From Candidatus Kerfeldbacteria bacterium RIFCSPHIGHO2_12_FULL_48_17 (GTDB lineage: Bacteria > Patescibacteriota > Patescibacteriia > HO2-48-17), in NCBI GenBank assembly GCA_001818775.1, contig MHKD01000019.1, positions 47,802 through 60,763 on the forward strand: a stretch of 12,962 nucleotides of DNA, in the 5' to 3' direction. The position numbers and the translations under genes were made by a program. The notes below the pieces were generated by a model. The model was not told where the DNA came from. It saw only the letters and a program-made list of their open reading frames with translations, and did no database searches. Numbering within the stretch: position 1 is the first letter of the stretch; each line of letters begins with the position of its first letter. Positions 146 to 12,739 of the stretch are shown one piece after another.

Positions 146-2311
146 ATGTTTCAAGAATATGGAGTACTCAATTACTATGACCACATGAATTTGGAGAGAA
201 CGGGAAAGCAGGTCGTGGGACCGGTACAGGGGCAAATGGAAGTGCTCACCGATCAGGTTTCGGGAATGACGGGTGATATGCAGACGGCAATGGAAAATGC
301 CAATGAGCAGATGAGGGATGCGATTTCGGACGTGATTGCTTCACAGGAACGGATTGCTGCTCAGAGACAGGAAATGTTTTTTGAGTTAACCAACATGTTG
401 GGGAGCATACAGGATTCTATAATTGGTGGTTTCACTGACATGCTGTCAGTCCTCGATGACATGAATGACAGTTTAGAGCAGCTCCTGGAAATTGCGCGGA
501 CACCCAATGAAACGGCTGCGATGGAACATTTCGTTCATGCAAGGGACAATTTTGACAAAAGTTTATATCCTGAAGCAATGAAGCGGATTGATTTTGCTAT
601 TTTTGGTGATGGCAGGCGTTGTTCCGGTCATCCGGAAGAATGGCGGTTTCACTACCTTCGTGGGCTTCTGTTTTCCGATCCTTTGGCTGGGTATAACGAT
701 AGTAAGCAGGCCGAAGCGTGTTTTCTGACGGCGGCTCGTTATGCCAAAGCGGATGATTACACAGAGGATGCGGGTATGCATATGCTGTCAGCTTCCTGGA
801 TGTCGTATGTCCAAAAAGATTTTATTCGCTCGGCGCAACAATGCAGCGAGGCTTTACAGTTGATCCCGGGATTTGCTGAGGCGTTGTATCATCAGGCAAA
901 ATTGCAGATAGAGATGGAGAAAGTTCCAGACGCTTTGCAATCGCTTGAAGCCTTGGTGAATGTATCCCCAAAGCATTTTCTCAAAGTCGCTGCTGATTCG
1001 GTGTTTGCTGCGAAATCGCTGGAACTCACGCCGTTTTTTGTGAAACTTCGCGACGAGAAAAAGCGGGTGCTGCGGAAAATAGTTTCAGAGGATCTTACTG
1101 AGGCGGAACTGTGGTTGAGTCGTGGTGTCGAAAATGATGCGAAACTTCAATACGTTATTTTTCTGCGTAATTTTTTGGAATGCACACCGAATGATCTGGT
1201 CACGTTGTTTGAACAGGAAGGAGACGTTGTTTTTTATGTTGTAGAATTAAGTAAAGACAACACTTGCTGGAAACGAGCATGGGAAATTTTGAAAATTTTT
1301 GAAGAGAAGATTCCAAATTTTACCAGGCAGCAGAAGGAAGGGTTGTTTTTAGAATTTTATGGCTGGTCTGACTTACCCGGCATGGTTCATCGGTTTTGCG
1401 AGGCGATGGTGAATTGTGGTATTAAGGAGATTGCATTGAGGGCTGAGAAGATTCGGGATACTGACTGGTGCACTCAAGAAATGCAACGTCTTATTTCTGA
1501 TCGGGAAAAAAGGCTAGAACAAAAGAGAAAGGAGCAAGAAAGACAGAAAAAAGAGGCGAATTTCGGAATCTTTGCTTGGTATTATAATTCTTTTTCCAAG
1601 AAAAATCATATTGTAGGAGATATAATTTACTCCTACAACAGCTGGTTTTTTTGGCTGCTGTTTTTCGACATGTTTTTGTGGGCCCTCTCTTTGGTAGCTC
1701 TGTGGTTTTACCTGCCATTTGTTAGTGTGGGATGGCGCATAGGTGCATATCTGACAGGTTTCGCCTGGGTTCTGTTTAATGCTATTTTATGGACCATTTT
1801 TCTTTTCAGTTTTGTTGTTGTTCGGAAAACTGAAGTGGCGCTCTTTAGAATTGGTGGAGTTGTTCAGAAATGGCCGGGTTTGGGGGAATCAATTTTTTGG
1901 AAAGCGCCAGGTGTTGGGGTGATAATCATCTCTGTGGCGCCAGTGGATTATATTTTTCCCAGTATCGAAGTTGAAGTTTCGTCGGGGAAAAAATTATGGT
2001 TCGATCAAGTCCACGTTACCAGCACTGTTTGCAAGCAGCGGGCTTATCTTCAAATGGAGATAGGTGACGAAGACCCGGTAAAATTTGCTCAAAAGCGGAT
2101 TGCTCTAAAGCTTCATGACGCAATCCAGAAATGGATTGCGGATAACATAAGGGAAAATGACGGGCAAAAAAATGAGGATTACAGGCAGATCCAACTGTGT
2201 AGAGAGGAAGTAAAGCTGGCTATGGAACAGGCAGCTGCTGCAGAGCTACGGAGCTATGGATTCGATATTCGGGTTATTTCACCAGGGAATATGCGCCTAT
2301 CTCCAAAGTAA
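146..2311 (+). CDS. Multidomain membrane protein: N-terminal soluble TPR-like/helical region, basic coiled-coil, 2-3 TM helices, C-terminal divergent SPFH/band-7-like domain
   Basis: ATG at 146 follows GAAGGAG (131-137) with an 8-nt spacer, opening a 721-aa ORF. Residues ~1-470 are hydrophilic and helical with TPR-like stretches (EALQLIPGFAEALYHQAKLQIEMEKVPDALQSLEALVNVSPKHF). A basic coiled coil DREKRLEQKRKEQERQKKE precedes the hydrophobic segments WFFWLLFFDMFLWALSLVALWFYLPF and AYLTGFAWVLFNAILWTIFLFSFVVV. The C-terminal ~170 aa align to the SPFH cores of the two downstream paralogs (GGVVQKW..GESIFW..VDYIFPSIEVEV..YLQME.., ending SYGFDIRVISPGNMRL versus QYGVLARVISLGDITL in the 4719 gene). Confidence 0.8.
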   Translation: MFQEYGVLNYYDHMNLERTGKQVVGPVQGQMEVLTDQVSGMTGDMQTAMENANEQMRDAISDVIASQERIAAQRQEMFFELTNMLGSIQDSIIGGFTDMLSVLDDMNDSLEQLLEIARTPNETAAMEHFVHARDNFDKSLYPEAMKRIDFAIFGDGRRCSGHPEEWRFHYLRGLLFSDPLAGYNDSKQAEACFLTAARYAKADDYTEDAGMHMLSASWMSYVQKDFIRSAQQCSEALQLIPGFAEALYHQAKLQIEMEKVPDALQSLEALVNVSPKHFLKVAADSVFAAKSLELTPFFVKLRDEKKRVLRKIVSEDLTEAELWLSRGVENDAKLQYVIFLRNFLECTPNDLVTLFEQEGDVVFYVVELSKDNTCWKRAWEILKIFEEKIPNFTRQQKEGLFLEFYGWSDLPGMVHRFCEAMVNCGIKEIALRAEKIRDTDWCTQEMQRLISDREKRLEQKRKEQERQKKEANFGIFAWYYNSFSKKNHIVGDIIYSYNSWFFWLLFFDMFLWALSLVALWFYLPFVSVGWRIGAYLTGFAWVLFNAILWTIFLFSFVVVRKTEVALFRIGGVVQKWPGLGESIFWKAPGVGVIIISVAPVDYIFPSIEVEVSSGKKLWFDQVHVTSTVCKQRAYLQMEIGDEDPVKFAQKRIALKLHDAIQKWIADNIRENDGQKNEDYRQIQLCREEVKLAMEQAAAAELRSYGFDIRVISPGNMRLSPK

Positions 2312-2359
2312 GCCATTTTTTAGACACGTATCCCAAATTTGAAAGTTGTTAAATTTACC

Positions 2360-2438
2360 CTAAGGAGGTGATTTTTCACTGCACATTCAAGAAACCTGAC
2401 GTATGTTTTATAACATATACTCAGGTTTTTTGTTTTTT
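2360..2438 (+). repeat. Copy A (degenerate) of a thrice-repeated operon-end element: perfect SD TAAGGAGGTGATT + intrinsic terminator
   Basis: TAAGGAGGTGATT at 2361-2373 is a 12-nt complement of the 16S 3' end. It is followed by cactgcacattcaagaaaCCTGAC...TCAGGttttttg, which shares flanks with the copies at 4462-4541 and 6969-7049. The ATG of the mini-ORF seen in those copies is absent here (cactGcac versus cactTATGcac). Confidence 0.6.
2395..2438 (+). terminator. Rho-independent terminator after the 721-aa gene
   Basis: Hairpin CCTGAC-GTATGTT-ttat-AACATATAC-TCAGG (2395-2425) followed by TTTTTTGTTTTTTG (2426-2439). Confidence 0.65.
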
Positions 2439-2482
2439 GTAAGCGGCTTTATATGCACGTAAGCAGCGGTAGCGAGGGTTTG

Positions 2483-2511
2483 TTGACTTTCTTGTGGATT
2501 TAGTATCTAAT
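2483..2511 (+). promoter_or_regulatory. Sigma-70-like promoter for the short-SPFH operon (TTGACT-17 nt-TCTAAT), paralogous to the promoter at 4573-4601
   Basis: TTGACT at 2483-2488 and TCTAAT at 2506-2511 are separated by a 17-nt spacer. The spacer-to-leader region aligns without gaps to 4573-4629, and the predicted TSS near 2518 starts the conserved leader cactttattggggtaattgtgcc (2517-2539). Confidence 0.5.
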
Positions 2512-2582
2512 GTAGGCACTTTATTGGGGTAATTGTGCCTTTAATAAAGCGTACTTCGACAATACAGAAAAAGGAGAAAGAC

Positions 2583-3227
2583 ATGAACAGAAGCTTTGCA
2601 CGCGGAGCGTTGATAACAGCCTTAATTTTCATTCCGGTGTTGGTGCTGGCTGCACTATTTATGGAGCAGTATTGGGCGGGTTCGGAATTTTTTCCGGGTT
2701 TGGACTTGGTTTTGTCCGGTTTGGCGTCGTTGGCCGTTCTCTTTGTCATTTTTGGTATAGTGGTGGTGCCCATCAATCATGTCGGCGTTATCGTTCTCAT
2801 GGGTCAGATTCAGAATTCGACACCCCTTCGTGAGGGTATATGCTGGGTACCGTTTTGGGCACAGGTGTTTTTTGAGTCGTTGGCGCCCAGAAAGGTGCAA
2901 ATTGACCCCATTGAATTCGAGTTTGAGGGGTCATTTTCCAAGCTTTCAAATATCCGCGTAGAGGTCAATGTGGATCCGGAGCGCGCGTTTCAATATTTCC
3001 GGCTTGATGAGAAAATTCGCGCCGAGCAGATAGATGCAAGGGTCTACAGTATTGCAAAGAAGACGCTGCAGCGCTTTATTGATGGTACTGATCGCCCCGG
3101 AACAAAAAGAAGAACCGTTCGGGAATTTAAGGCTGCCAGTGAAGACGCCAAGACTCGGCTTAATGAGGCTTTGAATGACGAGCTTTACGAGCATGGTGTC
3201 CAGGCTTGCGTTGTTTCTTTGGAGTAG
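2583..3227 (+). CDS. Short SPFH/band-7 (HflKC/flotillin-like) membrane protein, truncated relative to its paralog
   Basis: ATG 2583 follows AAGGAG (2571-2576) with a 6-nt spacer. The ORF track's GTG at 2535 has no SD. A short basic N-terminus is followed by two hydrophobic segments (ALITALIFIPVLVLAALF, LVLSGLASLAVLFVIFGIVVV). The core VPINHVGVIVLMGQIQN..EGICWVPFWAQV..IDPIEFEF..IRVEVNVDP..YFRLDE matches the band-7 pattern and aligns with the 4719 gene. It ends at HGVQACVVSLE*, where the paralog continues YGVLARVISLGDITLPDRIKQAIE. Confidence 0.75.
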   Translation: MNRSFARGALITALIFIPVLVLAALFMEQYWAGSEFFPGLDLVLSGLASLAVLFVIFGIVVVPINHVGVIVLMGQIQNSTPLREGICWVPFWAQVFFESLAPRKVQIDPIEFEFEGSFSKLSNIRVEVNVDPERAFQYFRLDEKIRAEQIDARVYSIAKKTLQRFIDGTDRPGTKRRTVREFKAASEDAKTRLNEALNDELYEHGVQACVVSLE

Positions 3228-3271
3228 CGTAGAACTTGATCATGTAACGGGAAAAAAGAAAGGAAATAGTT

Positions 3272-3892
3272 ATGTCGCAAAACAAATGGAAATATGGTGA
3301 TTTGCTCTTTGGGCAAGGGTGGTTGTCGGTCCTGGTGTGGGTGGTGTTGGTCCCTGTTTTTTGTTTTTTAGTCTCGGTTGCGATGGGGTATTTAGAGTAC
3401 CGCGATTGGGTCGCCACCAACCGTTTCCCGGAACCTGTTAAGGCGCCGATTGACCCAGCAGTGGTTGCTGAGCAGGTAAAGGAGGAAGCTAAACAAAGAG
3501 CCGAAAATCTTAAAAAAATCGAATCGCTGATCAAGCAGGCAGCGGCTTACGAGCGGCAGGCTAAGTACGCTGCAGGGGAAGAAAAGTTCTTCCTTTACCC
3601 TATTGTATGGAAGCATTGCCAGGGGCCTGTCTTAGGACCTGGTCTTTGGCATGTCATTATTTATAAGTGGGTATCAGACCGGCCATTCAAATTTGATCTT
3701 ACCAAGGGCCCGGCTGATGGCGAGGCTGAAGAATACACCAACTTCACCCTCGACACTATCGTAAAACCGGATGCCGGTCGCCAGATAGGTATTCCAGGCG
3801 GTTTTAGCGAGCCGGACTCGTTGTTTTTTTATCATTTAACAAATAAGGCACCGGGTCCATCTTGGGTGAGCGTGCCGCCGCAATGTCAATGA
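3272..3892 (+). CDS. Small membrane-anchored protein, paralog 1 of a conserved SPFH-associated family of unknown function
   Basis: ATG 3272 follows AAAGAAAGGAAA. It lies 44 nt downstream of the SPFH gene. The N-terminus MSQNKWKYGDLLFGQGWLSVLVWVVLVPVFCFLVSVAMGYL is a single TM anchor, followed by a charged helical linker. The C-terminal ~110 aa carry EEKFFLYPIVWKHCQGPVLGPGLWHVIIYKWV ... SLFFYHL..PGPSWVSVPPQCQ, shared with the ORFs at 3928 and 6352. Confidence 0.8.
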   Translation: MSQNKWKYGDLLFGQGWLSVLVWVVLVPVFCFLVSVAMGYLEYRDWVATNRFPEPVKAPIDPAVVAEQVKEEAKQRAENLKKIESLIKQAAAYERQAKYAAGEEKFFLYPIVWKHCQGPVLGPGLWHVIIYKWVSDRPFKFDLTKGPADGEAEEYTNFTLDTIVKPDAGRQIGIPGGFSEPDSLFFYHLTNKAPGPSWVSVPPQCQ

Positions 3893-3927
3893 GGGGTTTG
3901 TCAAAAAAAAATAGAAAGGAAAGTAGT

Positions 3928-4455
3928 ATGCCACAGAAGAAATGGAAGTATAGTGATTTGCTGTTTGGGCAAAGGTGGTTGTCGGTGGTGGCTTGGGTTG
4001 CGCTGGTGGTTTTTGGTTATTTGTTCCTGAGCCTGGTTGGCTCCTACATGATAAGTCGTGAAAACCGGGAAAAATCTGGCGAGATGGCAGCGACCATTGA
4101 TTCCAGTCAGAGGCAGAGGTTCGCGCCTGGCGAAGAGAAGTTTTTTAACTTCCCCTTTAGGTGGTATTCCTGTACTGGTGCCCATTTTGGGCCAGGCAGG
4201 TGGCATGTTGCCATCTATAAGTGGGTTTCGGCAGAGTCGATTTCTGCCTTCGAGCCTAAGGTATCAAAGAAAACCCATCTCAAATTGTATGTCGACAATA
4301 AGTTTCCACTCCTTGTCGACAACCGGGACGGGGTACTGCATCATATCCCACTTGGGCATGATGACCCAGATTCTTATTTTCTTTATGAAATAAAGAATTT
4401 GGGAAAGGACCCTGGTTGGGTTCAGCTCCCCCGGTCATGTCTCAAGGGGGATTAG
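3928..4455 (+). CDS. Small membrane-anchored protein, paralog 2 of the SPFH-associated family
   Basis: ATG 3928 follows GAAAGGAAAG (3914-3923). The TTG extension to 3862 in the ORF track has no SD and overlaps the previous stop. The N-terminus MPQKKWKYSDLLFGQRWLSVVAWVALVVFGYLFLSLVGSYM is a TM anchor. The C-terminus carries GEEKFFNFPFRWYSCTGAHFGPGRWHVAIYKWV ... SYFLYEIKNLGKDPGWVQLPRSC. Confidence 0.78.
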   Translation: MPQKKWKYSDLLFGQRWLSVVAWVALVVFGYLFLSLVGSYMISRENREKSGEMAATIDSSQRQRFAPGEEKFFNFPFRWYSCTGAHFGPGRWHVAIYKWVSAESISAFEPKVSKKTHLKLYVDNKFPLLVDNRDGVLHHIPLGHDDPDSYFLYEIKNLGKDPGWVQLPRSCLKGD

Positions 4456-4461
4456 CAAAAA

Positions 4462-4541
4462 CAAACAGAAAGGAGGTGATTCACTTATGCACATTTAAAA
4501 AAATCTGACAGCGTTTTACGAAGCGTCTGCTCAGATTTTTT
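4462..4541 (+). repeat. Copy B of the operon-end element: AAAGGAGGTGATT SD + mini-ORF ATG-CAC-ATT-TAA + intrinsic terminator
   Basis: caaacagaaAGGAGGTGAttcacttATGcacattTAAaaaaatctgacagcgttttacgaagcgtctgctcagattttttg. Roughly 95% identical to 6969-7049. SD at 4471-4479, with a 7-nt spacer to ATG 4487-4489 and stop at 4496-4498. Confidence 0.7.
4503..4541 (+). terminator. Rho-independent terminator ending the short-SPFH/partner operon
   Basis: Imperfect hairpin TCTGACAGCG-ttttacgaa-GCGTCTGCTCAGA followed by TTTTTTG (4535-4541). Confidence 0.65.
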
Positions 4542-4572
4542 GTTTATTTTTAGCCTTTTTTGGCGTTTTGTA

Positions 4573-4601
4573 TTGACTTTTTCTTTATTTTTCTGTATAA
4601 T
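4573..4601 (+). promoter_or_regulatory. Sigma-70-like promoter for the flotillin-like operon (TTGACT-17 nt-TATAAT)
   Basis: TTGACT at 4573-4578 and TATAAT at 4596-4601 (preceded by TG) are separated by a 17-nt spacer. The predicted TSS near 4608 starts the conserved leader cactttgttggggtaattgtgcc (4607-4629), leaving a leader of about 110 nt before ATG 4719. Confidence 0.6.
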
Positions 4602-4718
4602 ATAGCCACTTTGTTGGGGTAATTGTGCCGCAGCAAAGGGTTGTTTGACAACTTAAAATCAATAGAGGCCCACGCCGTGCGGCGGAGGAGCTGAATATAA
4701 AGAAAGGAGATTGATTTT

Positions 4719-6350
4719 ATGATTAAAATTAATCTTCATACAGAAAAGAGGAAGAAAATGAAAAAAAAGAACTCCGCCAAGGCCGAAACCCTGGGAGATT
4801 TTTTAAAGAGACTGTTTTTTGTTCTGCTGTGGGTGACAGGGTCGACGCTGGCTACTGTGCTTGTTTTCCTTCTTGTTAAGAAGGGATTAGTTTTTCTGCC
4901 AGAAGTTTCACTCCAAGATTTTTCGGGTGTCTGGTCTGTTCTGGGGATGGTGGGGCAGGGAGTTGCCTTGATAATTGGTGCCTTTGTTTTATTCGGTATA
5001 AGGCCCATACCCACCAATTATGTGGGGGTCACTACGCTTTTTGGAAAGATTCAAAACCGTGTCCTCCATGAAGGTATCAACTTGGTGTGGTTCTGGTATG
5101 ACTATCAGAAAGCCTCCACGGCGCCTCGGACTGTCAAGCTGGAACCGACGGAGTTTGAGTTTAGGGATGCACCTTCGAAGATTGCGGGGGTGCATATTCA
5201 GGTGCAGGTCAATCCAACTTGTCCGCAGGGTTACTTTCGTCTCACCGAGGAGACGCGGGAGACGGAAGTGGACGGGGCCGTGCGCAGTGTTGTGCAAAAA
5301 GTGCTGCAGAACCTGATTGACAATGCCGGGTCCCAGATGACCGTGGACGAGTTTAAGGGCGTCTCAGATAAAGTCACAAAGGAGCTGAGTAGAACGCTCA
5401 ACTCCCAAATTTCTCAGTATGGCGTCCTGGCGCGTGTTATTTCCCTTGGTGACATAACGTTGCCTGATAGAATCAAACAGGCAATTGAGTCGGTGAAGAC
5501 GCGTGAGAGGATGGCTGTGACTCTCAAGGCGCAGGAGGGTCATATTCGGAAGCTTGTTGAGGAGGGGCTTGATGCCAGGAGGATTCAACCGCCAGTCGAG
5601 GAAACTCCGGACCAGCTGCAAAAGCGGATAATTCCGTTGGTTCTTGAGAATCTTAAGGAGGCTGGGTATTTTCCCCCACTTCAGGAAACCCTAGAGCAGT
5701 TTGAGGCCCGTCTCAAATCTTTGGCATCGCAGCGCTTGAGGAACAGGGGAATTTCCGAGCCAACCAGAGAATCTGCAGAAGACCATAAAAAAAGGTTGGA
5801 AACAGATGTCCTGGCGACTTTGCAGCTGCAGGGTGTTGTGCGGCCCGTGGCTGAAGATCTGGCGACACGGGAAGCTCGTTTGGCCGGAATTGTCCGGGCC
5901 AGTTTTCTCATTTCTTCTACTGAGCCAGTGCCTCCAGCGGTCGCCAGTATTTTTTCTAAAGAAATGCAGACGCTGCGGCAGTTGGAAGAGCAGAAGTTCC
6001 TTGGCTATGCTGCCGCTTTTTCTAAGGAGCTGGAGCGACTTGAGGCTATTGACGCAGCAGTAGCCGACCGTTTTTATTCTGTTTTTGAGGAGGAAGTTGC
6101 GCGTTTGCGCAGTGCCCAGGAAAAGCAGATAAAAGATTTCAATGCCGCTTTTTCTAAGGAGCTGGGGGACCTAAAAGCAGAAGAACGGCGTCGCTATGAT
6201 GACGCCAAAAGAACTTATGATGAGCAGGTTGAGCGCTTGGAGGCTTCGTTCCAGCATGAGCAGGAAGAGGCTACCAAGCAGGAGTTGTATTCCAAAAATC
6301 CAAACTTCCTGTTGGGACTTGACCCCACAGGTAAAAAGAAAGGAAAATAA
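4719..6350 (+). CDS. Flotillin-like SPFH/band-7 membrane protein with long C-terminal coiled-coil carrying three FSKE(L/M) repeats
   Basis: ATG 4719 follows AAAGGAG (4703-4709) with a 9-nt spacer. An alternative ATG at 4758 follows GAGG. The basic N-terminus and hydrophobic segments (LFFVLLWVTGSTLATVLVFLLV, VWSVLGMVGQGVALIIGAFVLFGI) lead into the SPFH core NYVGVTTLFGKIQNRVLHEGINLVWFW..LEPTEFEF..IQVQVNP..YFRLTEE..QYGVLARVISLGDITLPDRIKQAIESVKTRERMA, which resembles HflK/HflC and flotillin. An E/A/R/Q-rich coiled coil follows, with ASIFSKEMQ, AAAFSKELERLEA and NAAFSKELGDLKA repeats. Confidence 0.85.
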   Translation: MIKINLHTEKRKKMKKKNSAKAETLGDFLKRLFFVLLWVTGSTLATVLVFLLVKKGLVFLPEVSLQDFSGVWSVLGMVGQGVALIIGAFVLFGIRPIPTNYVGVTTLFGKIQNRVLHEGINLVWFWYDYQKASTAPRTVKLEPTEFEFRDAPSKIAGVHIQVQVNPTCPQGYFRLTEETRETEVDGAVRSVVQKVLQNLIDNAGSQMTVDEFKGVSDKVTKELSRTLNSQISQYGVLARVISLGDITLPDRIKQAIESVKTRERMAVTLKAQEGHIRKLVEEGLDARRIQPPVEETPDQLQKRIIPLVLENLKEAGYFPPLQETLEQFEARLKSLASQRLRNRGISEPTRESAEDHKKRLETDVLATLQLQGVVRPVAEDLATREARLAGIVRASFLISSTEPVPPAVASIFSKEMQTLRQLEEQKFLGYAAAFSKELERLEAIDAAVADRFYSVFEEEVARLRSAQEKQIKDFNAAFSKELGDLKAEERRRYDDAKRTYDEQVERLEASFQHEQEEATKQELYSKNPNFLLGLDPTGKKKGK

Positions 6351-6351
6351 A

Positions 6352-6954
6352 ATGTATGATCTTTTGTTCAAATCGGGGATTGTGTCGGTGGGGGCGTGGA
6401 TTGCTCTGGTTGTTCTGGTGTATTTGGCCCTCAGTCTGACGGGATCATGTGTAAGGAGTTGCGAGATGCGGGCACAGCAGGACCCGAATACTTCTTATCC
6501 CACTCCTGTCACGACCGAGGAGCAGGTCAAGCGGGCCGAGAAGCTGGCCGCGCACCAGGCGGAAATTCTGAAAACGTTGCCGCAGACTATTGAAGAAGCG
6601 GCATCGTATCCCCGAAGCCAGGATTATCCGGCCCAGGAGAAATTGTTCCTCCTTTACCCCTTCAAGTGGGATCATTGCTGGGGGCCGCTCTTGGGCCCGG
6701 GGGTGTGGCACGTCGTAATTTATAAGTGGAAGGCTGCCGGGTCCCTGCAGATGGAAGATTTGAAGGAAGGGCCCGCTGTTGAAGATTACGAGCTTGTCTC
6801 CAACTTCCGGGTCAACACGGTGGTTGATAAGCGTGAGGGCAAGCAGGTGATTGTACCGGAGGGGTGGAAAGACAAAAACGCTCTTTATTTTTTTCAGCTG
6901 GAGCGCATAAGTGACTCGCTCGGCTGGGTCAGCGTTCCCCCTCAATGCCGCTGA
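6352..6954 (+). CDS. Small membrane-anchored protein, paralog 3 of the SPFH-associated family
   Basis: ATG 6352 follows AAGAAAGGAAA and sits 1 nt after the flotillin-like TAA (6348-6350), which suggests translational coupling. The N-terminus MYDLLFKSGIVSVGAWIALVVLVYLALSLTG is a TM anchor. The C-terminus carries QEKLFLLYPFKWDHCWGPLLGPGVWHVVIYKWK ... ALYFFQLERISDSLGWVSVPPQCR. The ORF-track extension to 6196 lies inside the upstream gene and has no SD. Confidence 0.8.
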   Translation: MYDLLFKSGIVSVGAWIALVVLVYLALSLTGSCVRSCEMRAQQDPNTSYPTPVTTEEQVKRAEKLAAHQAEILKTLPQTIEEAASYPRSQDYPAQEKLFLLYPFKWDHCWGPLLGPGVWHVVIYKWKAAGSLQMEDLKEGPAVEDYELVSNFRVNTVVDKREGKQVIVPEGWKDKNALYFFQLERISDSLGWVSVPPQCR

Positions 6955-6968
6955 GAGAGAGGCAAAAA

Positions 6969-7049
6969 TAAACAGAAAGGAGGTGATTCACTTATGCACA
7001 TTTAAAAAAACCTGACAGCGCTTTACGAAGCGTCTGCTCAGGTTTTTTT
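6969..7049 (+). repeat. Copy C of the operon-end element (SD + MHI mini-ORF + terminator)
   Basis: aaacagaaAGGAGGTGAttcacttATGcacattTAAaaaaacctgacagcgctttacgaagcgtctgctcaggttttttt. SD at 6978-6986, ATG 6994-6996, TAA 7003-7005. Confidence 0.7.
7011..7049 (+). terminator. Rho-independent terminator ending the flotillin-like/partner operon
   Basis: CCTGACAGCGC-tttacgaa-GCGTCTGCTCAGG hairpin followed by TTTTTTT (7043-7049). Confidence 0.65.
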
Positions 7050-7071
7050 ATTCTCAATCGCGCAGAATTTT

Positions 7072-7080
7072 GGTATACTA
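7072..7080 (+). promoter_or_regulatory. Extended -10 promoter (TGgTATACT) for the NHL/FG-GAP gene
   Basis: TGGTATACT at 7072-7080, with a weak -35 TTCTCA at 7051-7056. The ~22-nt leader ATCTACATAATCATTCGCCTTTTTTTCT carries no SD before ATG 7110. Confidence 0.4.
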
Positions 7081-7109: not shown

Positions 7110-10100
7110 ATGCTCAAAAGATATTTATCGTCAGTCTTCGCGGCGGTCATCATCGGCCTGATCGCGCTGCTGCCCCAGGTCACCCTCGCCACATTTGGCG
7201 ACACCACTACCTACGTCGGTAAAATCATCGGCGGTGACGGCAAGGACAAACTCAGCGCGTACCTCGACCAATCGGCTGATTTTGCCGTTGACAGCTCCGG
7301 TAATTTTTATCTGGCTGACACGCGCAACAACGTCATCCGCAAAATTTCATCGAGCGGCACCGTTTCCACCGTGGCCGGTACGGGTGCGTATGGCGATGTC
7401 ACCGGCAACAAAAGCGACGCTAAATTCGCTGGCCCGGAAGCACTGGCCCTCGACGGCAGCACCATCTTCGTGGCCGACACCGGCAACAACACCATCAAGA
7501 AAATTTCCGGCAGCACCGTCAGTACCCTGGTCAGCTCCGGCCTCAGCGGCCCCAAAGGCCTGTATGCCGACACATCGGCTGACATTCTCTACATCGCCGA
7601 CACCGGCAACAATAAAATCAAGAAAGTCGCTTTTGGAGGCGGCAGCGTCAGCACCGTGGCCAGCGGCCTCAACGCGCCCACCAAATTCACGAAAAATGGC
7701 GGCACCCTTTATGTGAATAACACCGGTGACAGCAAAATCAAATCGGTTGTCATTTCCAGCGGCGCAGTGGCGACTGTGGCCAGTGATTTTCTCGATCTCG
7801 GCGGCATAACGTACCACGAAGGTCACCTCTACAGTGTTGATGGTGATGGTCTGTTTGATTATCTGCAGAGCATTGATCCATCCACCGGTGCCAAATCTTT
7901 GCTGGCTGAAGACGGTTCCATGATTACCCTTAATACTTCTTCACAGGTCCTGGTGTATAACAGTAAGATTTACGTCCTCAACCGCGGCTCGAGCAGTATT
8001 TATAGATTTGACCTTGACGGCTCAAATCCTGTTCATTTTGCTGGCAAAGACCGTTTTGGCAATGATAACGGCACCGGAACCAACGCGCTCATCGGCGCTC
8101 CCAAAGATATCGTCATTTCCGATGATCGCGCCTTTATGTATCTGGCGGAAAACAACAAGATTCGCAAAATCACCCTAGACAGTGGCAAAGTTGAATCACT
8201 CATCGGCAATGCCGTGGATAATTACAAAGAAGGCAGAACCGGTTCGGACGGGCGTTTCAGTGATATCACCTCCATTGCCGTTTCACCGGATGGCGCCACA
8301 CTCTACGTCACTGATCGCAACAACAACCGTGTCCGCGGGATAGATATTGCTGCCAAAATTGATTTTCTTATTTCCGGCGCCGGAGAAATCAATTCCCACG
8401 GTGAATCCGATAACGGCTACCAGGAAGGTACCAAGTGTTTGGCTGAGTTTGACGCTGGTGTTTCCGGTTGCGCGTATTTCAATCGTCCCACGGGTATTGC
8501 GATTTCATCGGATGGGAAGTTTCTCTACGTCACCGATACGGGCAATCACCGCATCCGCCGCGTGCGCGTGAGTGATGGGCAAACGACACTTATCGCCGGT
8601 TCAGGTGCTGCGGGTTTCACCAATGGCGTCGGTTCGGCGGCAAAATTCAATTCACCGTACAGTGTCACCATCGACGCGGCCGGTGATTTCCTGTATGTCG
8701 CTGACAAGGGCAATCACGCCATCCGTAAAATTGACCTGGCAACCCGTGAAGTCACCACCCTTACGGGCACCGGTTCCTTTGGCTATAATGATGCCACCTT
8801 TGATAAGGCGGTGTTTTCTTTCCCCGAGTACATTGAATTCGGTGGCGATGGTCACCTGTATGTTTCGGAAGTCGGCAGTCAGCGTATTCGCCAGCTTGAT
8901 CTGGAAAACGAAGTGACGAAGCTTGTGGCCGGTTCCGGTGATCGTGGTTTTCTGAACGGCAACCGCAGTGATGCGGAGTTTAATAACCCCAAGGGCATGG
9001 CTGTTGATGCGCCGTCAGACACTATTTATGTTACCGATAACCAAAATGATCTTATCCGTAAAATGGACATTGAGGGTGAAGCGCCATTCACCGAACTCTC
9101 ACCGACCGTGACCCGTGTTGATCCCAATACCAAAACCCTCGCTGACCGCGGCGATCAGACAATTCCCATTGATCTGTACGGTTCGAATATTCGTCATGGC
9201 GCCATAGCCTATGTCGGCGCGTTTCAGGCATTGAAAACATATGTCACTGATTATGGCGCGGTGCTGGAGTTGCCGTTTGGCTTGCTTGATCCGGGGCATT
9301 ATGACATTACCGTGAAGAATATCGATTCACAGTCGTACACCTTGCTGAAAGGTTTTCGCGTGACACGGAAAGACGGTGTATTGCCCGGTACCTATTATAA
9401 ATATGATGGGTCGGTGGTTGGTGGCGACGGCGTGGCTCCGTTAAGCGCTAACTTTTTTCCGTATGATTCGGCTCTGCGCGGCGGGTTTAACAGTTCCACG
9501 TGTGATGTGAATAAAGACGGGGTTGATGAAATCATTGTGGGTACGGGTGTGGGTTTTGGTCCACAGGTCAAGGTCTTTACCAAGTCAGGGGATTTGCTGT
9601 TCAGCTTTTTTGGCTTTGCGGAGACGTTACGCGCTGGTGTGCGTACTTCGTGCGGTGACCTTGACAAGGACGGTAAACCGGAAATTGTGGTGACGGCCGG
9701 ACCCGGAGGCAGACCGCATGTGCGTATTTTTGACAACGAAGGCAATCTCAAGCATCCGGGTTGGTTTGCGCTGGATGGAAAGTTCAAGGGCGGAACGTAT
9801 ACCACGATTGGCGATGTGAACGGCGATAAGGTTGGTGATATTATTGTCAGCGCCGGCAAGGGCGGCGGGCCCCACATTACCGTTCACAGGATGGACGGTC
9901 GGTTGCTGGCCACATTCTTTGCCTACAGCAACACATTCCGTGCCGGTATTCAGCCGGTGGCGATGGATTTTGATAATGACGGTCGGGATGAAATTGTGGT
10001 GGTGCCCGATACCGGTACATCGCATGTGCAGACATTCAGCATTCAGCCGAATGATATCAGGTTGTTGAATCCCGGTTTCTTCGCCTTTGGCACGACTGAC

Positions 10101-10364
10101 GCCAATGGTTTCAATATTGCCGGCGGTGACATTGATGGTGACGGCAAAGATGAGATCATTGTGGGTACCGGTCCGAACAATATAGCGCGCGTGCGTGTCT
10201 TTAACAAAGATGGTTCGGTGATACTCAAAGATGAGCAGGTGTTTTCAAGTTCGTATAAGGGGGGAGTGAACGTCTCGGCCGGGGATGTTGATGGGGACGG
10301 TGACGATGACATTATTGTTTTGCCGCGTTCCAGCGGAGTTCCTGATCTGCGGGTTCTGAAGTAA
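7110..10364 (+). CDS. Secreted 1084-aa NHL-repeat beta-propeller / IPT(TIG) / FG-GAP-repeat protein
   Basis: Signal peptide MLKRYLSSVFAAVIIGLIALLPQVTLATFG. At least 8 NHL-type blades (YLADTRNNVIRKI, FVADTGNNTIKKI, YIADTGNNKIKKV, YVTDRNNNRVRGI, YVTDTGNHRIRRV, YVADKGNHAIRKI, YVSEVGSQRIRQL, YVTDNQNDLIRKM). An Ig-like IPT segment (TVTRVDPNTKT...YDITVKNIDSQSYTLLKGFRVT). Six FG-GAP/VCBS repeats (CDVNKDGVDEIIVGTG..PQVKVF, GDLDKDGKPEIVVTAGPGGRPHVRIF, GDVNGDKVGDIIVSAGKGGGPHITVH, MDFDNDGRDEIVVVPDTGTSHVQTF, GDIDGDGKDEIIVGTGPNNIARVRVF, GDVDGDGDDDIIVLPRS). Codon usage is strongly biased toward C-ending codons. Confidence 0.85.
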   Translation: MLKRYLSSVFAAVIIGLIALLPQVTLATFGDTTTYVGKIIGGDGKDKLSAYLDQSADFAVDSSGNFYLADTRNNVIRKISSSGTVSTVAGTGAYGDVTGNKSDAKFAGPEALALDGSTIFVADTGNNTIKKISGSTVSTLVSSGLSGPKGLYADTSADILYIADTGNNKIKKVAFGGGSVSTVASGLNAPTKFTKNGGTLYVNNTGDSKIKSVVISSGAVATVASDFLDLGGITYHEGHLYSVDGDGLFDYLQSIDPSTGAKSLLAEDGSMITLNTSSQVLVYNSKIYVLNRGSSSIYRFDLDGSNPVHFAGKDRFGNDNGTGTNALIGAPKDIVISDDRAFMYLAENNKIRKITLDSGKVESLIGNAVDNYKEGRTGSDGRFSDITSIAVSPDGATLYVTDRNNNRVRGIDIAAKIDFLISGAGEINSHGESDNGYQEGTKCLAEFDAGVSGCAYFNRPTGIAISSDGKFLYVTDTGNHRIRRVRVSDGQTTLIAGSGAAGFTNGVGSAAKFNSPYSVTIDAAGDFLYVADKGNHAIRKIDLATREVTTLTGTGSFGYNDATFDKAVFSFPEYIEFGGDGHLYVSEVGSQRIRQLDLENEVTKLVAGSGDRGFLNGNRSDAEFNNPKGMAVDAPSDTIYVTDNQNDLIRKMDIEGEAPFTELSPTVTRVDPNTKTLADRGDQTIPIDLYGSNIRHGAIAYVGAFQALKTYVTDYGAVLELPFGLLDPGHYDITVKNIDSQSYTLLKGFRVTRKDGVLPGTYYKYDGSVVGGDGVAPLSANFFPYDSALRGGFNSSTCDVNKDGVDEIIVGTGVGFGPQVKVFTKSGDLLFSFFGFAETLRAGVRTSCGDLDKDGKPEIVVTAGPGGRPHVRIFDNEGNLKHPGWFALDGKFKGGTYTTIGDVNGDKVGDIIVSAGKGGGPHITVHRMDGRLLATFFAYSNTFRAGIQPVAMDFDNDGRDEIVVVPDTGTSHVQTFSIQPNDIRLLNPGFFAFGTTDANGFNIAGGDIDGDGKDEIIVGTGPNNIARVRVFNKDGSVILKDEQVFSSSYKGGVNVSAGDVDGDGDDDIIVLPRSSGVPDLRVLK

Positions 10365-10395
10365 TCACTGGCTTACGCGTTTGGCGCGTTTCAAT

Positions 10396-10428
10396 AAAAA
10401 AAACGCCACTTTTTACGGTGGCGTTTTT
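10396..10428. terminator. Bidirectional Rho-independent terminator between convergent genes
   Basis: AAAAAAAACGCCAC-tttttacg-GTGGCGTTTTT has an A-run upstream and a T-run downstream. It serves the + strand NHL gene (stop 10364) and the - strand histone-fold gene (stop 10445). A smaller hairpin ACGCGtttggCGCGT sits at 10369-10383. Confidence 0.7.
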
Positions 10429-10444
10429 ATATCTGGAGAAAGTT

Positions 10445-10621
10445 TTACAAATCCTGGCCCTTGACGGTGGTGCGCTTGTTGCCCTGGGTGCGCTTGCAGG
10501 CATCGTCGAGCACGCCCATCACCTTTTTATTAAGAGCTTCGAGAACCTCGGAAGAAGTTTTGCACTTCTTGGATTTAATATAGGCTTTTACTTTTGAGCC
10601 TACAATTAACAGGTCAGCCAT
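10445..10621 (-). CDS. Bacterial histone-fold protein (HMf-like / DUF1931-type singlet histone), 58 aa, absent from the ORF track
   Basis: Reverse-complement ORF ATG(10619-10621)..TAA(10445-10447). It translates to MADLLIVGSKVKAYIKSKKCKTSSEVLEALNKKVMGVLDDACKRTQGNKRTTVKGQDL. This fits the histone-fold pattern: L-I----I-K, an S-E---L first helix, and the C-terminal A-KR--GNKRTTVKG-D-L matching the A--HAGRKTIKAEDI motif of archaeal HMfB. No SD precedes the ATG. Confidence 0.6.
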   Translation of the reverse strand: MADLLIVGSKVKAYIKSKKCKTSSEVLEALNKKVMGVLDDACKRTQGNKRTTVKGQDL

Positions 10622-10731
10622 GAGTTTCTTATTAATAATTAAGGCTTACAAATCCGCGGGCACTTTTTTCGCGGCACTTTAGGGGGGCAAATGCTCAGAT
10701 TTGTGAGTCTTAGGTCTTAATATATCGGTTT

Positions 10732-11316
10732 TTATTTTTTAACGCAGCGATTGTTTCGGCACAGACAACTGGGTATGGCATCCTTTTCCTGCTGTGTGCA
10801 AATGGCGTTGCACGATACACGGTTTATCTGGCTGTATACTTCTTCATTCAGACAGGAATAGCCGCAGCTGCAGTTGCTGAAAAGGGGCGTGCAGTCAGCG
10901 TCGGTCTCACAGCTGAGGGCGGATGGGGTTTTATTTCCTCCTGTGTCAGTTTGAGTATTTACGTTTTGATTGGCGCTGTTTTCGGTTTCTGTGCCGCTCG
11001 ATGCATCTATACTAGCACCGTTCACGTTTTTTGTTAAGCTGCTCTCGGTCTTTTGCGGGTTGATGGGTTTTTTTGTCGAGATAATGCCGCTCATCACAAT
11101 CACAAGCTCTAAACACAGAAAAACGAAAACAAGAACGAACCCAAGTGCCAGATTGATGGCTTTGGCGTATCTATTTTTATCAGGATTTCCCTGTGCTGTT
11201 TTTTTTCGACCGCGTTTTGTTTTTTTGCCCGTGTTGTTATGGCTTTTTACCATACCTTTTATTTTCGTTGTTATTGTACCATTATATTTCTCCTTGTTCA
11301 ATTTTTTGTTTTCCAT
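10732..11316 (-). CDS. Lysine-rich N-terminus / single-TM / Ser-Thr-Asn-rich linker / 12-cysteine C-terminal domain protein, unknown function
   Basis: 194-aa ORF. The N-terminus (KKTKRGRKKTAQGNPDKNRYAK) is strongly basic, followed by the TM segment AINLALGFVLVFVFLCLELVIVMSGII and a low-complexity linker (TESSLTKNVNGASIDASSGTETENSANQNVNTQTDTGGNKT). The C-terminus is SCETDADCTPLFSNCSCGYSCLNEEVYSQINRVSCNAICTQQEKDAIPSCLCRNNRCVKK. The start is uncertain: M1 overlaps the PduO gene by 35 nt, and an alternative M22 (ATG 11251-11253) does not. No SD precedes either. Confidence 0.55.
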   Translation of the reverse strand: MENKKLNKEKYNGTITTKIKGMVKSHNNTGKKTKRGRKKTAQGNPDKNRYAKAINLALGFVLVFVFLCLELVIVMSGIISTKKPINPQKTESSLTKNVNGASIDASSGTETENSANQNVNTQTDTGGNKTPSALSCETDADCTPLFSNCSCGYSCLNEEVYSQINRVSCNAICTQQEKDAIPSCLCRNNRCVKK

Positions 11317-11851
11317 TCCAGGTATGCTCGGTTTGATTGTAATGCTTGTTGAGTATCCGGGCGAGAATAAAAAACCAATCAGAAAGTCTGTTCATATATT
11401 TGAGGATTTCCGGATCGATTTCTTCCTGTTGATCAACGCTGATGATGCTTCTTTCAGCCCGGCGGCATATGGTGCGGCAGATATGGGCAACGGCGGCTGA
11501 TCGGTCGCCACCCGGCAGGATAAAATGGGCGAGTGGAGGCAGATCGTGTTGCCAGGCATCAATCTCTTGTTCGAGTGTTTGAACATGGTGTGGTTGTATG
11601 TGGGGCGTATGCAGTGGTGAGTCCTTTGGCGTGGCGAGTTCTGCCCCAATAATGAACAGATTTTCTTGCACTGCCATCAGTTTTTTGTTGATGCCATCAT
11701 CATTTATTCTCGAAATAAGAAAACCAATGAACGAATTGAGTTCATCCACTTCACCGTACGCGACCAGGCGCGGATGGTTTTTCCGCACGCGTTGGTTGCC
11801 AAACAATCCCGTTTCACCCTGATCGCCGGTTTTGGTGTAAATTTTTGTCAT
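11282..11851 (-). CDS. PduO-type ATP:cob(I)alamin adenosyltransferase
   Basis: N-terminal MTKIYTKTGDQGETGLFGNQRVRKNHPRLVAYGEVDELNSFIGFL is the signature motif of the PduO/MMAB/EutT-like adenosyltransferase family (KIYTKTGDxGxT...R..K...R..AYG..DELNS). The 189-aa length fits the family. Confidence 0.85.
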   Translation of the reverse strand: MTKIYTKTGDQGETGLFGNQRVRKNHPRLVAYGEVDELNSFIGFLISRINDDGINKKLMAVQENLFIIGAELATPKDSPLHTPHIQPHHVQTLEQEIDAWQHDLPPLAHFILPGGDRSAAVAHICRTICRRAERSIISVDQQEEIDPEILKYMNRLSDWFFILARILNKHYNQTEHTWNGKQKIEQGEI

Positions 11852-11884
11852 ATGCCGTATATTAGACAGTTACTTAGTACATGT

Positions 11885-12739
11885 TCATAATGTCTTGACG
11901 GTTTCCATTGTCGGTGTTGCCCCATCTTTCACCGTCGCCGCGTCTGCTGCGGCTGCCGTTCGGTTTTCCGTGTCTTTTTTCTTGGCCATGGCGTAGTGTA
12001 TGATGGCGTGCACCGCCTGGGCGCCGGAAACAAGTCTTGGCCCGGGACGGTTCAAAAGCGAGTCATCAATGCGGTAGACATTTTCCGCGCGCACCGCTCG
12101 CATGTGGTTCCAATTTTTTCTTTCCTTTATACTCCCGACATCACTCCGGTTGGCACGACCGCACCAATGGGCCACGATGATTTCCGGATTGAACACGAGT
12201 ATCTGTTGATCACTCACTTTTTTGCTTGGCTGTCCGGGTTCCACGAATTTTGTTCTCCCACCAGCGAGGCTGATGATTTCCGGTACCCAATTCCCGCCGG
12301 CCATGAAAGGTTTTGACCATTCCTCGGCGTACACACTCGGTCGTTCCTCGTGATTTTTCGAACAGACACTGATTTTCTCGAATTCCGTTTTCATGGAATC
12401 TGTCAGGGCTTGCGCTTCCGTTTGCTTACCGACGAGTTCGCCGAGCTCAATTATGGATGTGAATACATCCGTCAATGTTTTTGCCTGAAAATGGTAGATC
12501 TCCCCGCGGCCGTTATAGTTGTGGAGTTCTTTGGGGAAATAATACGAGGTGAGGATGATGTCAGGTTCAAGCGCGGCGATTTTGGCCGTGTCGGTCCCAG
12601 TCCAGGTGCCGATTTTTTCTTTGGCGGCGACTCCGGCGGGAAAGTCGCACAGTTTCGTCACGGCAATCGTTTCTGCCTGACAGCCAAGCGCAAAAAGGAT
12701 TTCCGTGTTACTTGGGGCCAGTGAAACGATTTTCAGCAT
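11885..12739 (-). CDS. BtuF-like (class III periplasmic-binding-protein fold) cobalamin/siderophore-type substrate-binding protein, no signal peptide
   Basis: MLKIVSLAPSNTEILFALG....IVAVT..CDFP...........W....D...IAALEPDIIL parallels E. coli BtuF (RVITLSPANTELAFAAG...GVS.YSDYP...W.G...E.I.ALKPDLVI). It sits next to the PduO-type adenosyltransferase. The start lies 21 nt after the upstream gene's stop, and in-frame stops upstream rule out an N-terminal leader peptide. Confidence 0.7.
   Translation of the reverse strand: MLKIVSLAPSNTEILFALGCQAETIAVTKLCDFPAGVAAKEKIGTWTGTDTAKIAALEPDIILTSYYFPKELHNYNGRGEIYHFQAKTLTDVFTSIIELGELVGKQTEAQALTDSMKTEFEKISVCSKNHEERPSVYAEEWSKPFMAGGNWVPEIISLAGGRTKFVEPGQPSKKVSDQQILVFNPEIIVAHWCGRANRSDVGSIKERKNWNHMRAVRAENVYRIDDSLLNRPGPRLVSGAQAVHAIIHYAMAKKKDTENRTAAAADAATVKDGATPTMETVKTL

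Follow-up and report, generated by a model that had tools for sequence, protein, structure and literature searches.

In this study, we show that a 12,962-nucleotide stretch of DNA (the window) from Candidatus Kerfeldbacteria bacterium RIFCSPHIGHO2_12_FULL, a candidate phyla radiation (CPR) bacterium from Rifle aquifer groundwater, carries within positions 146-7049 six plus-strand genes arranged as three co-oriented units, each of which encodes one SPFH protein. In our judgment there is a somewhat better than even chance that this is a lineage-specific array of three transcription units, derived by ancient tandem duplication of an operon for an SPFH protein and a single-pass membrane partner, in which the cis signals were conserved. 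The six products, P1 to P6, are OGY83718.1-OGY83723.1 (locus tags A3F54_05040-05065). Unit 1 consists of P1 (OGY83718.1, 146..2311, 721 aa, SPFH at the C-terminus). Unit 2 consists of P2 (OGY83719.1, 2583..3227, 214 aa, SPFH) and then of the first two copies of a partner family, P3 (OGY83720.1, 3272..3892, 206 aa) and P4 (3928..4455, 175 aa), and unit 3 of P5 (OGY83722.1, 4719..6350, 543 aa, SPFH with a long tail) followed by the third partner copy, P6 (OGY83723.1, 6352..6954, 200 aa). The database version of P4 (188 aa) uses an alternative start, the ATGA-overlap ATG at 3889; we set the start at 3928 because the ATG at that position is led by the GAAAGGA Shine-Dalgarno (SD) sequence common to all partners. 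The starts of both P4 and P6 are corrected here, and the other four open reading frames (ORFs) are where the original prediction had placed them.

The array was compared with locus L010 (Logan SRR19238504 contig, region 1-1905) from a close relative, with locus L011, and with locus L007 (ENA ERZ4903070 contig, region 52-1064) from a related organism, and 32.6 kb of the source contig were surveyed (L012/L016, ERZ27254756 k141_174261, positions 50553-83146). The comparative sample for the cis elements consists of four 3' element copies and three leaders, all from close relatives.

The SPFH proteins of the array

P1, P2 and P5 are all SPFH proteins, P1 by way of a local profile and its predicted fold. 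The Pfam Band_7 model (PF01145, cut-off 23.6 bits) matches P2 with 39.8 bits (6.4e-10) and P5 with 73.7 bits (2.4e-20), and P1 falls below the cut-off with 12.6 bits (E=0.14). By BLASTP, the C-terminal third of P1 is 25% identical to P2 over 208 residues (E=7e-7), and a local SPFH profile, which covers P2, P5, the L011 protein P0009 and the L010 protein in their soluble SPFH parts alone, scores 17.8 bits on P1 residues 560-721, as compared with 7.4 bits for the best of 2000 shuffles. The AlphaFold2 (AF2) model of P1 is good for residues 550-720 (predicted local distance difference test score, pLDDT, 75-88) and poor for the N-terminal 480 residues. All of the top 48 Foldseek matches of the C-terminal model in the PDB are SPFH proteins, of which stomatin is the best (8.6e-8), and the others include prohibitin, erlin, HflK/C, QmcA and flotillin. 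The SPFH alpha/beta fold was checked by a model for P1, and the SPFH calls of P2 and P5 rest on Pfam; UniRef labels all three proteins 'Band 7 domain-containing'. The presence of three SPFH paralogs in a row, which had been proposed from the sequence, is therefore confirmed, by Pfam for P2 and P5 and by the local profile, BLASTP and predicted fold for P1. P2 and P5 are 38% identical (E=6e-37). Searches for SPFH homologs returned, among the matches listed, self or near-self alone, and the best solved relative of P5 by sequence is the Pyrococcus stomatin (E=0.004). A phage origin was considered and rejected: P5 matches the generic phage SPFH family phrog_200 (9e-24), and the phage match to the SPFH domain is one prohibitin of 27% identity.

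Two hydrophobic 19-mers (Kyte-Doolittle 1.7-2.8) stand ahead of the SPFH domain in each of the three proteins. In P1 they lie at residues ~501-519 and ~541-559, followed by the SPFH domain at ~560-720, and are preceded by an N-terminal helical domain, predicted to be cytoplasmic, with a long coiled coil (residues ~28-117) and weak TPR-like repeats. The extra TPR-like domain of the original prediction survives as a helical domain, and its TPR assignment is weak, as every Pfam TPR match is below threshold and the pLDDT of the AF2 model is <50 in that region. P2 is composed of two transmembrane (TM) segments (9-27 and 43-61) and the SPFH domain. P5 has a Lys-rich N-tail, the two hydrophobic segments, the SPFH domain (97-272) and a charged tail of ~270 aa, which we take to be helical. 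This tail contains repeats (5951-6165 of the window, residues ~411-482) with an exact 23-nt DNA repeat at 6011 and 6143, 132 nt apart, and an 'AAFSKEL' peptide motif recurring at 22- and 44-residue spacing; an earlier series of ~25-residue helical repeats was judged by eye at residues ~290-400. P5 had also been called flotillin-like. That description is not supported, as Pfam at E<=1 gives just Band_7 and Band_7_1, NCBIfam gives no match, and no flotillin-specific model matched. A hairpin anchor with a cytoplasmic SPFH domain would be the simplest topology, in view of hydropathy and of the 480-residue N-terminal domain of P1, which has no signal peptide.

An orphan partner family

P3, P4 and P6 are mutually 39-40% identical and belong to one family of small membrane proteins, present in two copies and then one, as had been predicted. 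Family members share a Lys-rich N-tail (KWKYxDLLF), a single TM helix, a GPGxWHVxIYKW motif and two invariant Cys residues. P3 begins with a short Lys-rich N-tail and a TM segment (residues 20-38); a long helix follows, and then a C-terminal domain rich in beta structure. Its two conserved Cys residues are C116 and C205. Pfam, NCBIfam, PADLOC and PHROGs gave no family match for the partners. In agreement with the prediction that the partner is not NfeD, PF01957 gives no match at E<=1, and the fold predicted for the partner is other than an OB fold.

The partner family is confined to a few Kerfeldbacteria-like genomes. A word-indexed profile search of 5.8 billion clusters found 6 relatives, all from this organism or close relatives; in an exhaustive hmmsearch against 1.84 billion representatives there were 4, again all from this lineage. 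No relatives were found in scans of genome, metagenome and viral contigs or by tblastn against phages, and a fold search of the partner model in BFVD gave nothing at E<=0.001. Within the window, the SD, N-tail and TM-coding start of P3 (3252-3369) and P4 (3908-4025) are 76% identical in DNA over 118 nt as compared with 51% over the full genes, so that constraint on the partner is strongest in its N-tail and TM segment.

The pairing of SPFH protein and partner recurs in relatives. In L010, a Band_7 gene (5.3e-7) overlaps the start of the partner P0004, which is followed by the 3' element described below and by an NHL gene whose product is 87% identical to the NHL protein of the window over the first 183 aa. 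In L011, the SPFH protein P0009 (6.9e-11) is followed by a partner start, MSQNRW. The stop of P5 and the start of P6 are 1 nt apart and the SD of P6 is encoded in the Lys-rich C-terminus of P5; likewise, the two L010 genes overlap, and the codons for the Lys-rich C-terminus of the L010 SPFH protein contain the partner SD. By this arrangement, both pairs appear to be translationally coupled. The short SPFH protein that L010 encodes at the unit-3 position is of a further, fourth type (21-36% identical to P1/P2/P5, C-terminus KKRRK), and it is paired with a P3-like partner (59% identical), not a P6-like one. This difference suggests that units are replaced or shuffled between conserved boundary elements. 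In L007, a P4-like partner (176 aa) precedes a P3-like partner, so that the order is opposite to that of P3 and P4 in the window.

Duplication of the units and their promoters

Units 2 and 3 are collinear from promoter/leader through SPFH gene and partner gene(s) to the 3' element (DNA repeats D6, D8, D3/D4 and D2), and duplication of a whole transcription unit is therefore their simplest origin. The duplication is old, given that the paralogous coding DNA of the two units has a nucleotide identity of 0.50 and of 0.35 at the third codon position, which is essentially saturated. The ends of the same two units are far more alike: the 3' element is 93-95% identical over 85-87 nt, and the promoter/leader core is 81% identical. 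Saturated coding DNA beside a 3' element of 0.93 identity calls for selection or gene conversion and not for passive inheritance, and the promoter/leader and 3' element are both maintained in one of these two ways. In unit 1, only the TM-SPFH part and the 3' element, the latter diverged, have counterparts in the other units; its 5' region is not the same as theirs, and a partner gene is absent. The original prediction of a segmental duplication of a complete unit thus holds for units 2 and 3. It does not extend to unit 1, which lacks a partner and has a decayed mini-ORF in its 3' element, and inheritance alone cannot explain the near-identical ends.

The promoter/leader duplication likewise concerns units 2 and 3, in which 46/57 positions match (2483-2539 as compared with 4573-4629), and not unit 1 with its different 5' region. 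All of these elements are on the plus strand. The unit-3 promoter (4573..4601) consists of TTGACT (4573-4578), a 17-nt spacer and TATAAT (4596-4601); with 11/12 consensus matches it is the best promoter-like site in the window. The unit-2 promoter and leader (2483..2552) has TTGACT (2483-2488), a 17-nt spacer and TCTAAT (2506-2511). This -10 hexamer has C at the normally invariant A2, and a consensus scan left the unit-2 promoter out. The orthologous promoter in L011 reads CATAAT at this position. To judge by these hexamers, promoter strength may be reduced at unit 2 in this genome.

The unit-2 leader stem-loop (2516-2552, core TTGGGGTAATTGTGCC) and the unit-3 stem-loop (4609-4638) are conserved relative to each other and begin ~3 nt into the predicted transcript. 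L011 has the promoter and leader with TTGGGGTAATTGTGCC unchanged, and its leader stem-loop has one compensatory pair. We conjecture that the leader stem-loop could act as a 5' stabilizer or as an operator. Pairing between the 5' and 3' untranslated regions (UTRs) in the style of hbs or icaR was rejected: the leaders contain no CCUCC or ACCTCC, and the complementarity between leader AATTGTGC and element GCACATT is short and absent from L010. A 16-codon ORF at 2455-2505 (ATG-CAC-GTA-...-TAG) opens, like the mini-ORF of the 3' element, with ATG-CAC and crosses the unit-2 -35 box; it is probably due to chance.

The shared 3' element

Each of the three units ends with the same plus-strand element, as the original prediction had it, with copies 2 and 3 93-95% identical to each other and copy 1 ~70% identical to both. 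The element consists of a very long SD-like sequence, a mini-ORF of three codons and an intrinsic terminator. In copy 2 (4455..4541), these are AGAAAGGAGGTGAT at 4467-4480, ATG-CAC-ATT-TAA at 4487-4498 and a terminator at 4498-4541. Copy 3 (6962..7050) has AGAAAGGAGGTGAT at 6974-6987, ATG-CAC-ATT-TAA at 6994-7005 and a terminator with A-tract, hairpin and U-tract at 7003-7050 (minimum free energy, MFE, -26.3 kcal/mol, z=-4.9), after which the promoter of the downstream NHL/FG-GAP gene (7051-7079) follows. Copy 1 (2351..2432) has the SD-like AAGGAGGTGAT at 2362-2372, a former mini-ORF at 2379-2399 (CTG-CAC-ATT-CAA-GAA-ACC-TGA) in which start and stop are mutated, and a hairpin with U-tract at 2388-2432 (MFE -24.4 kcal/mol, z=-5.0).

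Over all of its 14 nt, AGAAAGGAGGTGAT is perfectly complementary to the canonical 16S rRNA 3' tail, and copy 1 keeps the 11-nt AAGGAGGTGAT of it. All 14 nt are invariant in three copies, and the 11-nt core in all four, L010 included. The duplex with the canonical tail, which is a generic one and may not be that of the host, is worth -23.9 kcal/mol for copies 2 and 3 and -18.7 kcal/mol for copy 1. The mini-ORF starts exactly 10 nt after GGAGG, both as ATG-CAC-ATT-TAA in copies 2 and 3 and as ATG-TTC-ATT-TAA in L010; the CTG of copy 1 is at the same distance, and its extended frame ends at a TGA inside the stem. The TAA of the mini-ORF is the first triplet of an A-tract/hairpin/U-tract terminator. 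Across the element copies, the terminator hairpins have MFE values of -20.6 to -26.3 kcal/mol and z of -2.8 to -5.0, and at three stem pairs the four copies differ by compensatory changes. The hairpin/U-tract structure is genuine, and termination itself is predicted.

The SD of the element lies 11-50 nt past the last stop codon, directly ahead of the terminator. AAGGAGGTGAT occurs 3 times in 20.6 kb as compared with 0.00 expected; no further AAGGAGGTGAT, 3' element or leader copies were found beyond the unit boundaries in the 32.6 kb of source contig, and zero further copies of the 3' element or leader in genome, metagenome and viral contigs. Rfam 15 at a permissive threshold gave, for 146-7049, a chance-level CsrC match alone (18 bits as compared with a threshold of 61). 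An integron attC reading of the 3' hairpin was rejected on reading the sequence, as neither GTTRRRY/RYYYAAC core sites nor an integrase were seen in the 32.6 kb; it is weakened also by the A-tract and U-tract flanks, which are typical of a bidirectional terminator. At 10381-10435, between the convergent NHL gene and a gene for a 58-aa protein, there is a strong bidirectional terminator hairpin (AAAAACGCCAC...GTGGCGTTTTT) with no SD-like sequence; ordinary terminators in this genome therefore do not carry the long SD (super-SD). A sub-threshold Rfam match of 10381-10435 to STnc320 looks like chance.

It seems from the substitutions between copy 3 and L010 that the parts of the element are unequally constrained. 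In segment categories which were defined after the sequences were seen, and in a small sample, 12/30 positions differ in the linker (3/12), spacer (2/6), codon 2 (2/3), loop (2/4) and the bases after the U-tract (3/5), as compared with 1/64 elsewhere: the 14-nt SD (0/14), the ATG, third codon and stop together (0/9), the A-tract (0/5), the 5' stem (0/14) and the U-tract (0/7) are unchanged, and the single difference in the 3' stem (1/15) converts G-C to G-U. Selection on the SD, start, stop and hairpin together would be expected to give this pattern. Over its length, the L010 element is 0.89 identical to copy 3, as compared with 0.80 for the adjacent NHL coding DNA and 0.67 for the NHL promoter region.

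The element could instead be an ordinary intrinsic terminator joined to the vestige of a translation-initiation region, a remnant of a gene start that was truncated when the units were duplicated, with copies homogenized by gene conversion and no role that involves ribosomes; the array would still be a duplicated SPFH operon. We regard this as possible, though on the doubtful side. It does not readily account for cross-species substitutions that avoid SD, ATG, third codon, stop, A-tract and stems and cluster in spacer, codon 2 and loop, for an SD core that is 11/11 in all four copies, even in the ~70%-identical copy 1, or for an element better conserved than the neighboring coding DNA. Nevertheless, several observations weigh in its favor and against a selected role of the whole element. 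Firstly, the SD-ATG half resembles the ribosome-binding site regions of the array genes (P4, p=0.0005; P5, p=0.0015; P6, p=0.01, relative to shuffles), the alignment with the region upstream of P5 reading AATA-A-AGAAAGGAG..TGATT..TTATG. Secondly, copies 2 and 3 are uniformly identical from stop codon to U-tract, loop and linker included, as gene conversion gives, and conversion between these two copies could explain much of their identity. Thirdly, copy 1 lost both its ATG (CTG) and its TAA (CAA) while the SD and hairpin were kept, and therefore the mini-ORF may be dispensable.

A third reading would make the element a translation-sensing read-through switch of the pyrBI kind, in which a ribosome that has finished the upstream partner gene, re-initiates at the super-SD, translates three codons and stops with its leading edge in the 5' arm would block the hairpin so that transcription continues, whereas lagging translation leaves the units insulated. 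The geometry is compatible with it: the TAA opens the A-tract and hairpin, the upstream stops are just 11 nt (P4) and 19 nt (P6) ahead of the SD, and the extended frame of copy 1 ends within the stem. As judged from general knowledge of ribosome footprints, the ~50 nt from the P-site codon to the end of the U-tract leave room for a ribosome behind RNA polymerase. However, the downstream units have strong promoters of their own 30-50 nt past the terminator, so that read-through control seems redundant. Known attenuators separate a promoter from the genes under their control, which this element does not. An alternative antiterminator structure is lacking, and the switch presupposes transcription-translation coupling in CPR bacteria. 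We therefore consider it quite improbable.

An island of Shine-Dalgarno sequences

The genes of the array are themselves distinguished by their SDs. An SD of the AGAAAGGA(G) type precedes 6/6 array genes and 0/26 flanking genes in the 32.6 kb (Fisher p=1.1e-6), and 8/9 plus-strand copies of GAAAGGA in this region are inside the array. With the generic tail, the anti-SD duplexes of the six array genes range from -9.3 to -15.4 kcal/mol and those of the 26 flanking genes from +1.1 to -8.5 kcal/mol, mostly weaker than -5. The SD of the 3' element is far longer than that of any array gene. The SDs recur in relatives with protein identities of just 49-70%, and therefore have long been maintained in the lineage. 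Three features go beyond the original prediction: the three-codon mini-ORF, the conservation of the 3' element in a second species and the restriction of SDs to the array.

A recent import of the array as a foreign island, from a donor that uses SDs (such as a Firmicutes-like bacterium or a mobile element) and with promoters and SDs of donor type, would be in keeping with the confinement of the SDs to the array, with the phrog_200 match of P5 and with some synonymous preferences that differ from those of the flanking genes (GGG, AGG, ACT). We hold this to be very improbable. The GC content of the array genes and their GC at third codon positions are within the flanking-gene range, there are no integrase, transposase or tRNA borders in the 32.6 kb, partner homologs were found nowhere outside the lineage, the sole phage match to the SPFH domain is the prohibitin of 27% identity, and the SDs persist in the diverged relatives just mentioned. 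A reading as anti-phage defense was rejected, as it has no PADLOC support: the array proteins gave coiled-coil-type noise alone (E>=0.008).

The island in an otherwise SD-less neighborhood bears on how CPR bacteria initiate translation. The presence of CCUCCUUUCU at the 3' end of the host 16S rRNA would support SD function, and its absence would refute it.

Genes flanking the array

Genes for a DsbA-like protein and Lgt are found upstream of the array. Downstream, 7110-10364 (+) encodes a 1084-aa protein with an N-terminal hydrophobic signal-like segment, many NHL repeats (4.4e-40) and C-terminal FG-GAP repeats (5.7e-25), which by these features is likely a large surface protein. Its gene is preceded by a separate extended -10 promoter (7051-7079) but not by an SD. 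The minus-strand cluster at 10445-12739 encodes four products: the 58-aa Lys-rich protein and a 173-aa Cys-rich membrane protein, neither with a family match, a PduO-type cob(I)yrinic acid a,c-diamide adenosyltransferase (3.6e-61) and a BtuF/Peripla_BP_2-like binding protein (9e-22).

Proposed model

Topology, complex formation and every part of ribosome parking in the following model are what we infer from the features described above. The SPFH proteins would be anchored by a two-helix hairpin with the SPFH domain facing the cytoplasm. The partners would be type-II-like single-pass proteins whose conserved Lys-rich N-tail and TM helix likely contact the SPFH anchor, and whose beta-sandwich C-domain, with its two conserved Cys residues, is probably extracellular and may be disulfide-bonded, which would fit a neighborhood of DsbA, Lgt and surface-protein genes. 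The products are most likely SPFH-partner membrane assemblies that follow the logic of SPFH-NfeD systems with an unrelated partner. The units would be kept as separately expressed cassettes by conserved signals, namely a near-consensus sigma-70-type promoter, SD-led genes and a composite 3' end, and in units 2 and 3 the leader stem-loop near the predicted 5' transcript end would serve as a stabilizer.

At the other end of the message, the strong SD, a perfect anti-SD complement of 12-15 nt, and the three-codon ORF would tether a ribosome just upstream of the terminator hairpin. Such a parked ribosome might shield the AU-rich junction from endonucleases, and 3' exonucleases would be halted short of the coding region; given tight coupling of transcription and translation, it could also lower termination and let transcription run on into the following unit. 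Set against the other explanations of this element, ribosome parking has in our view an appreciable but less than even chance. The closest parallels are the STAB-SD in the 5' UTR of B. thuringiensis cryIIIA and the ribosome-protected B. subtilis hbs mRNA (PMC5737220), in which a long SD-like GAAAGGAGG..., complementary to 16S rRNA and starting no real protein, has been proposed to act through a bound ribosome or 30S subunit as a shield against RNases.

A number of points count against the model. On the protein side, P1 and P2 stop within ~10 residues of the SPFH domain and have no C-terminal coiled-coil tail; because the cage-building coiled coil of solved SPFH assemblies is thus absent, homo-oligomeric P1 or P2 rings are not assured. 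The fold model of the partner is of moderate quality (pLDDT 72), and its membrane orientation is only weakly indicated by charge. With regard to the RNA, the whole-leader fold is not significantly better than that of shuffles (z=-1.7 and -1.0). The STAB-SD lies in a 5' UTR and blocks 5'-to-3' decay, whereas the array element comes after the last stop and is fused to a three-codon ORF and a terminator. The literature searched contained no stabilizing SD or equivalent element at a 3' end, which is weak evidence of absence, and we know of no precedent for a stabilizing SD at the 3' end of a message. Moreover, part of the Parcubacteria is without the anti-SD motif (PMC9297842).

A bolder version of this model, which we hold to be unlikely, is that super-SD, three-codon ORF and terminator form an undescribed class of 3'-end control element that ties message stability or read-through to ribosome availability, at work in a CPR genome whose remaining genes make no use of SDs. 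The SD-led SPFH array would then be a small regulon under a special ribosome regime, in which the orphan partner builds new SPFH assemblies. The logic of such a regulon would be comparable to the SD-dependent control of rpsU in the SD-blind Bacteroidia (PMC13000453).

The cis elements may in the end outweigh the proteins, as the transcript ends are near-invariant while the genes between them have diverged down to 40% identity. On the basis of few sequences from one narrow lineage, they suggest that a ribosome-binding site may be used at the 3' end of a message.

Comparison with known systems

Leader-peptide attenuation of the E. coli pyrBI type is familiar background for a short ORF whose ribosome overlaps the 5' arm of an intrinsic terminator, and the 3' element has the same geometry as predicted from its sequence. 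It differs in its position at the 3' end of an operon, in having an ORF of three codons, and in having neither an alternative structure nor a regulatory codon run.

Adjacent SPFH paralogs are likewise familiar from E. coli hflK-hflC, and the SPFH domains of HflK/C are periplasmic. The array resembles such pairs and multi-SPFH genomes in consisting of diverged neighbors that arose by duplication and are presumably specialized. It differs in that the SPFH domains are predicted to be cytoplasmic, that the paralogs each occupy a promoter-to-terminator cassette with shared cis elements, and that their architectures are radically different, one with an N-terminal 480-aa helical domain, one minimal and one long-tailed. 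The original prediction had taken SPFH-NfeD pairs as the canonical loci and the array as unusual on that ground. This is overstated, as non-NfeD SPFH loci are common, NfeD partners having been found for subfamilies SPFH1, 2 and 5 alone and none for SPFH3, 4 and 6-12 (PMC2636767), and genomes with many SPFH proteins are documented, such as that of P. aeruginosa PA14 with nine (PMC13086221).

The array has most in common with the SPFH-NfeD operons, such as E. coli QmcA-YbbJ (PDB 8z5g), Pyrococcus PH1511-PH1510 and B. subtilis FloT/YuaG-YuaF. In both, the gene that comes directly after the scaffold gene in the operon encodes a small membrane protein whose soluble domain is rich in beta structure, the two genes are partly coupled in translation (as predicted for the array), and the pairing is kept across relatives. 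The array partner differs in having no PF01957 signal, one TM helix, a probably extracytoplasmic domain with two Cys residues and a distribution restricted to one lineage, and 2/3 of the array SPFH proteins have no C-terminal coiled coil. The protein side of the array is thus a lineage-restricted elaboration of a familiar theme, and what is new is the orphan partner together with the unusual cis elements. SPFH scaffolds are universal and how their clients are chosen is poorly understood; a lineage-specific non-NfeD partner that occurs alongside minimal, long-tailed and N-terminally extended SPFH proteins offers a natural comparison set for the choice of clients.

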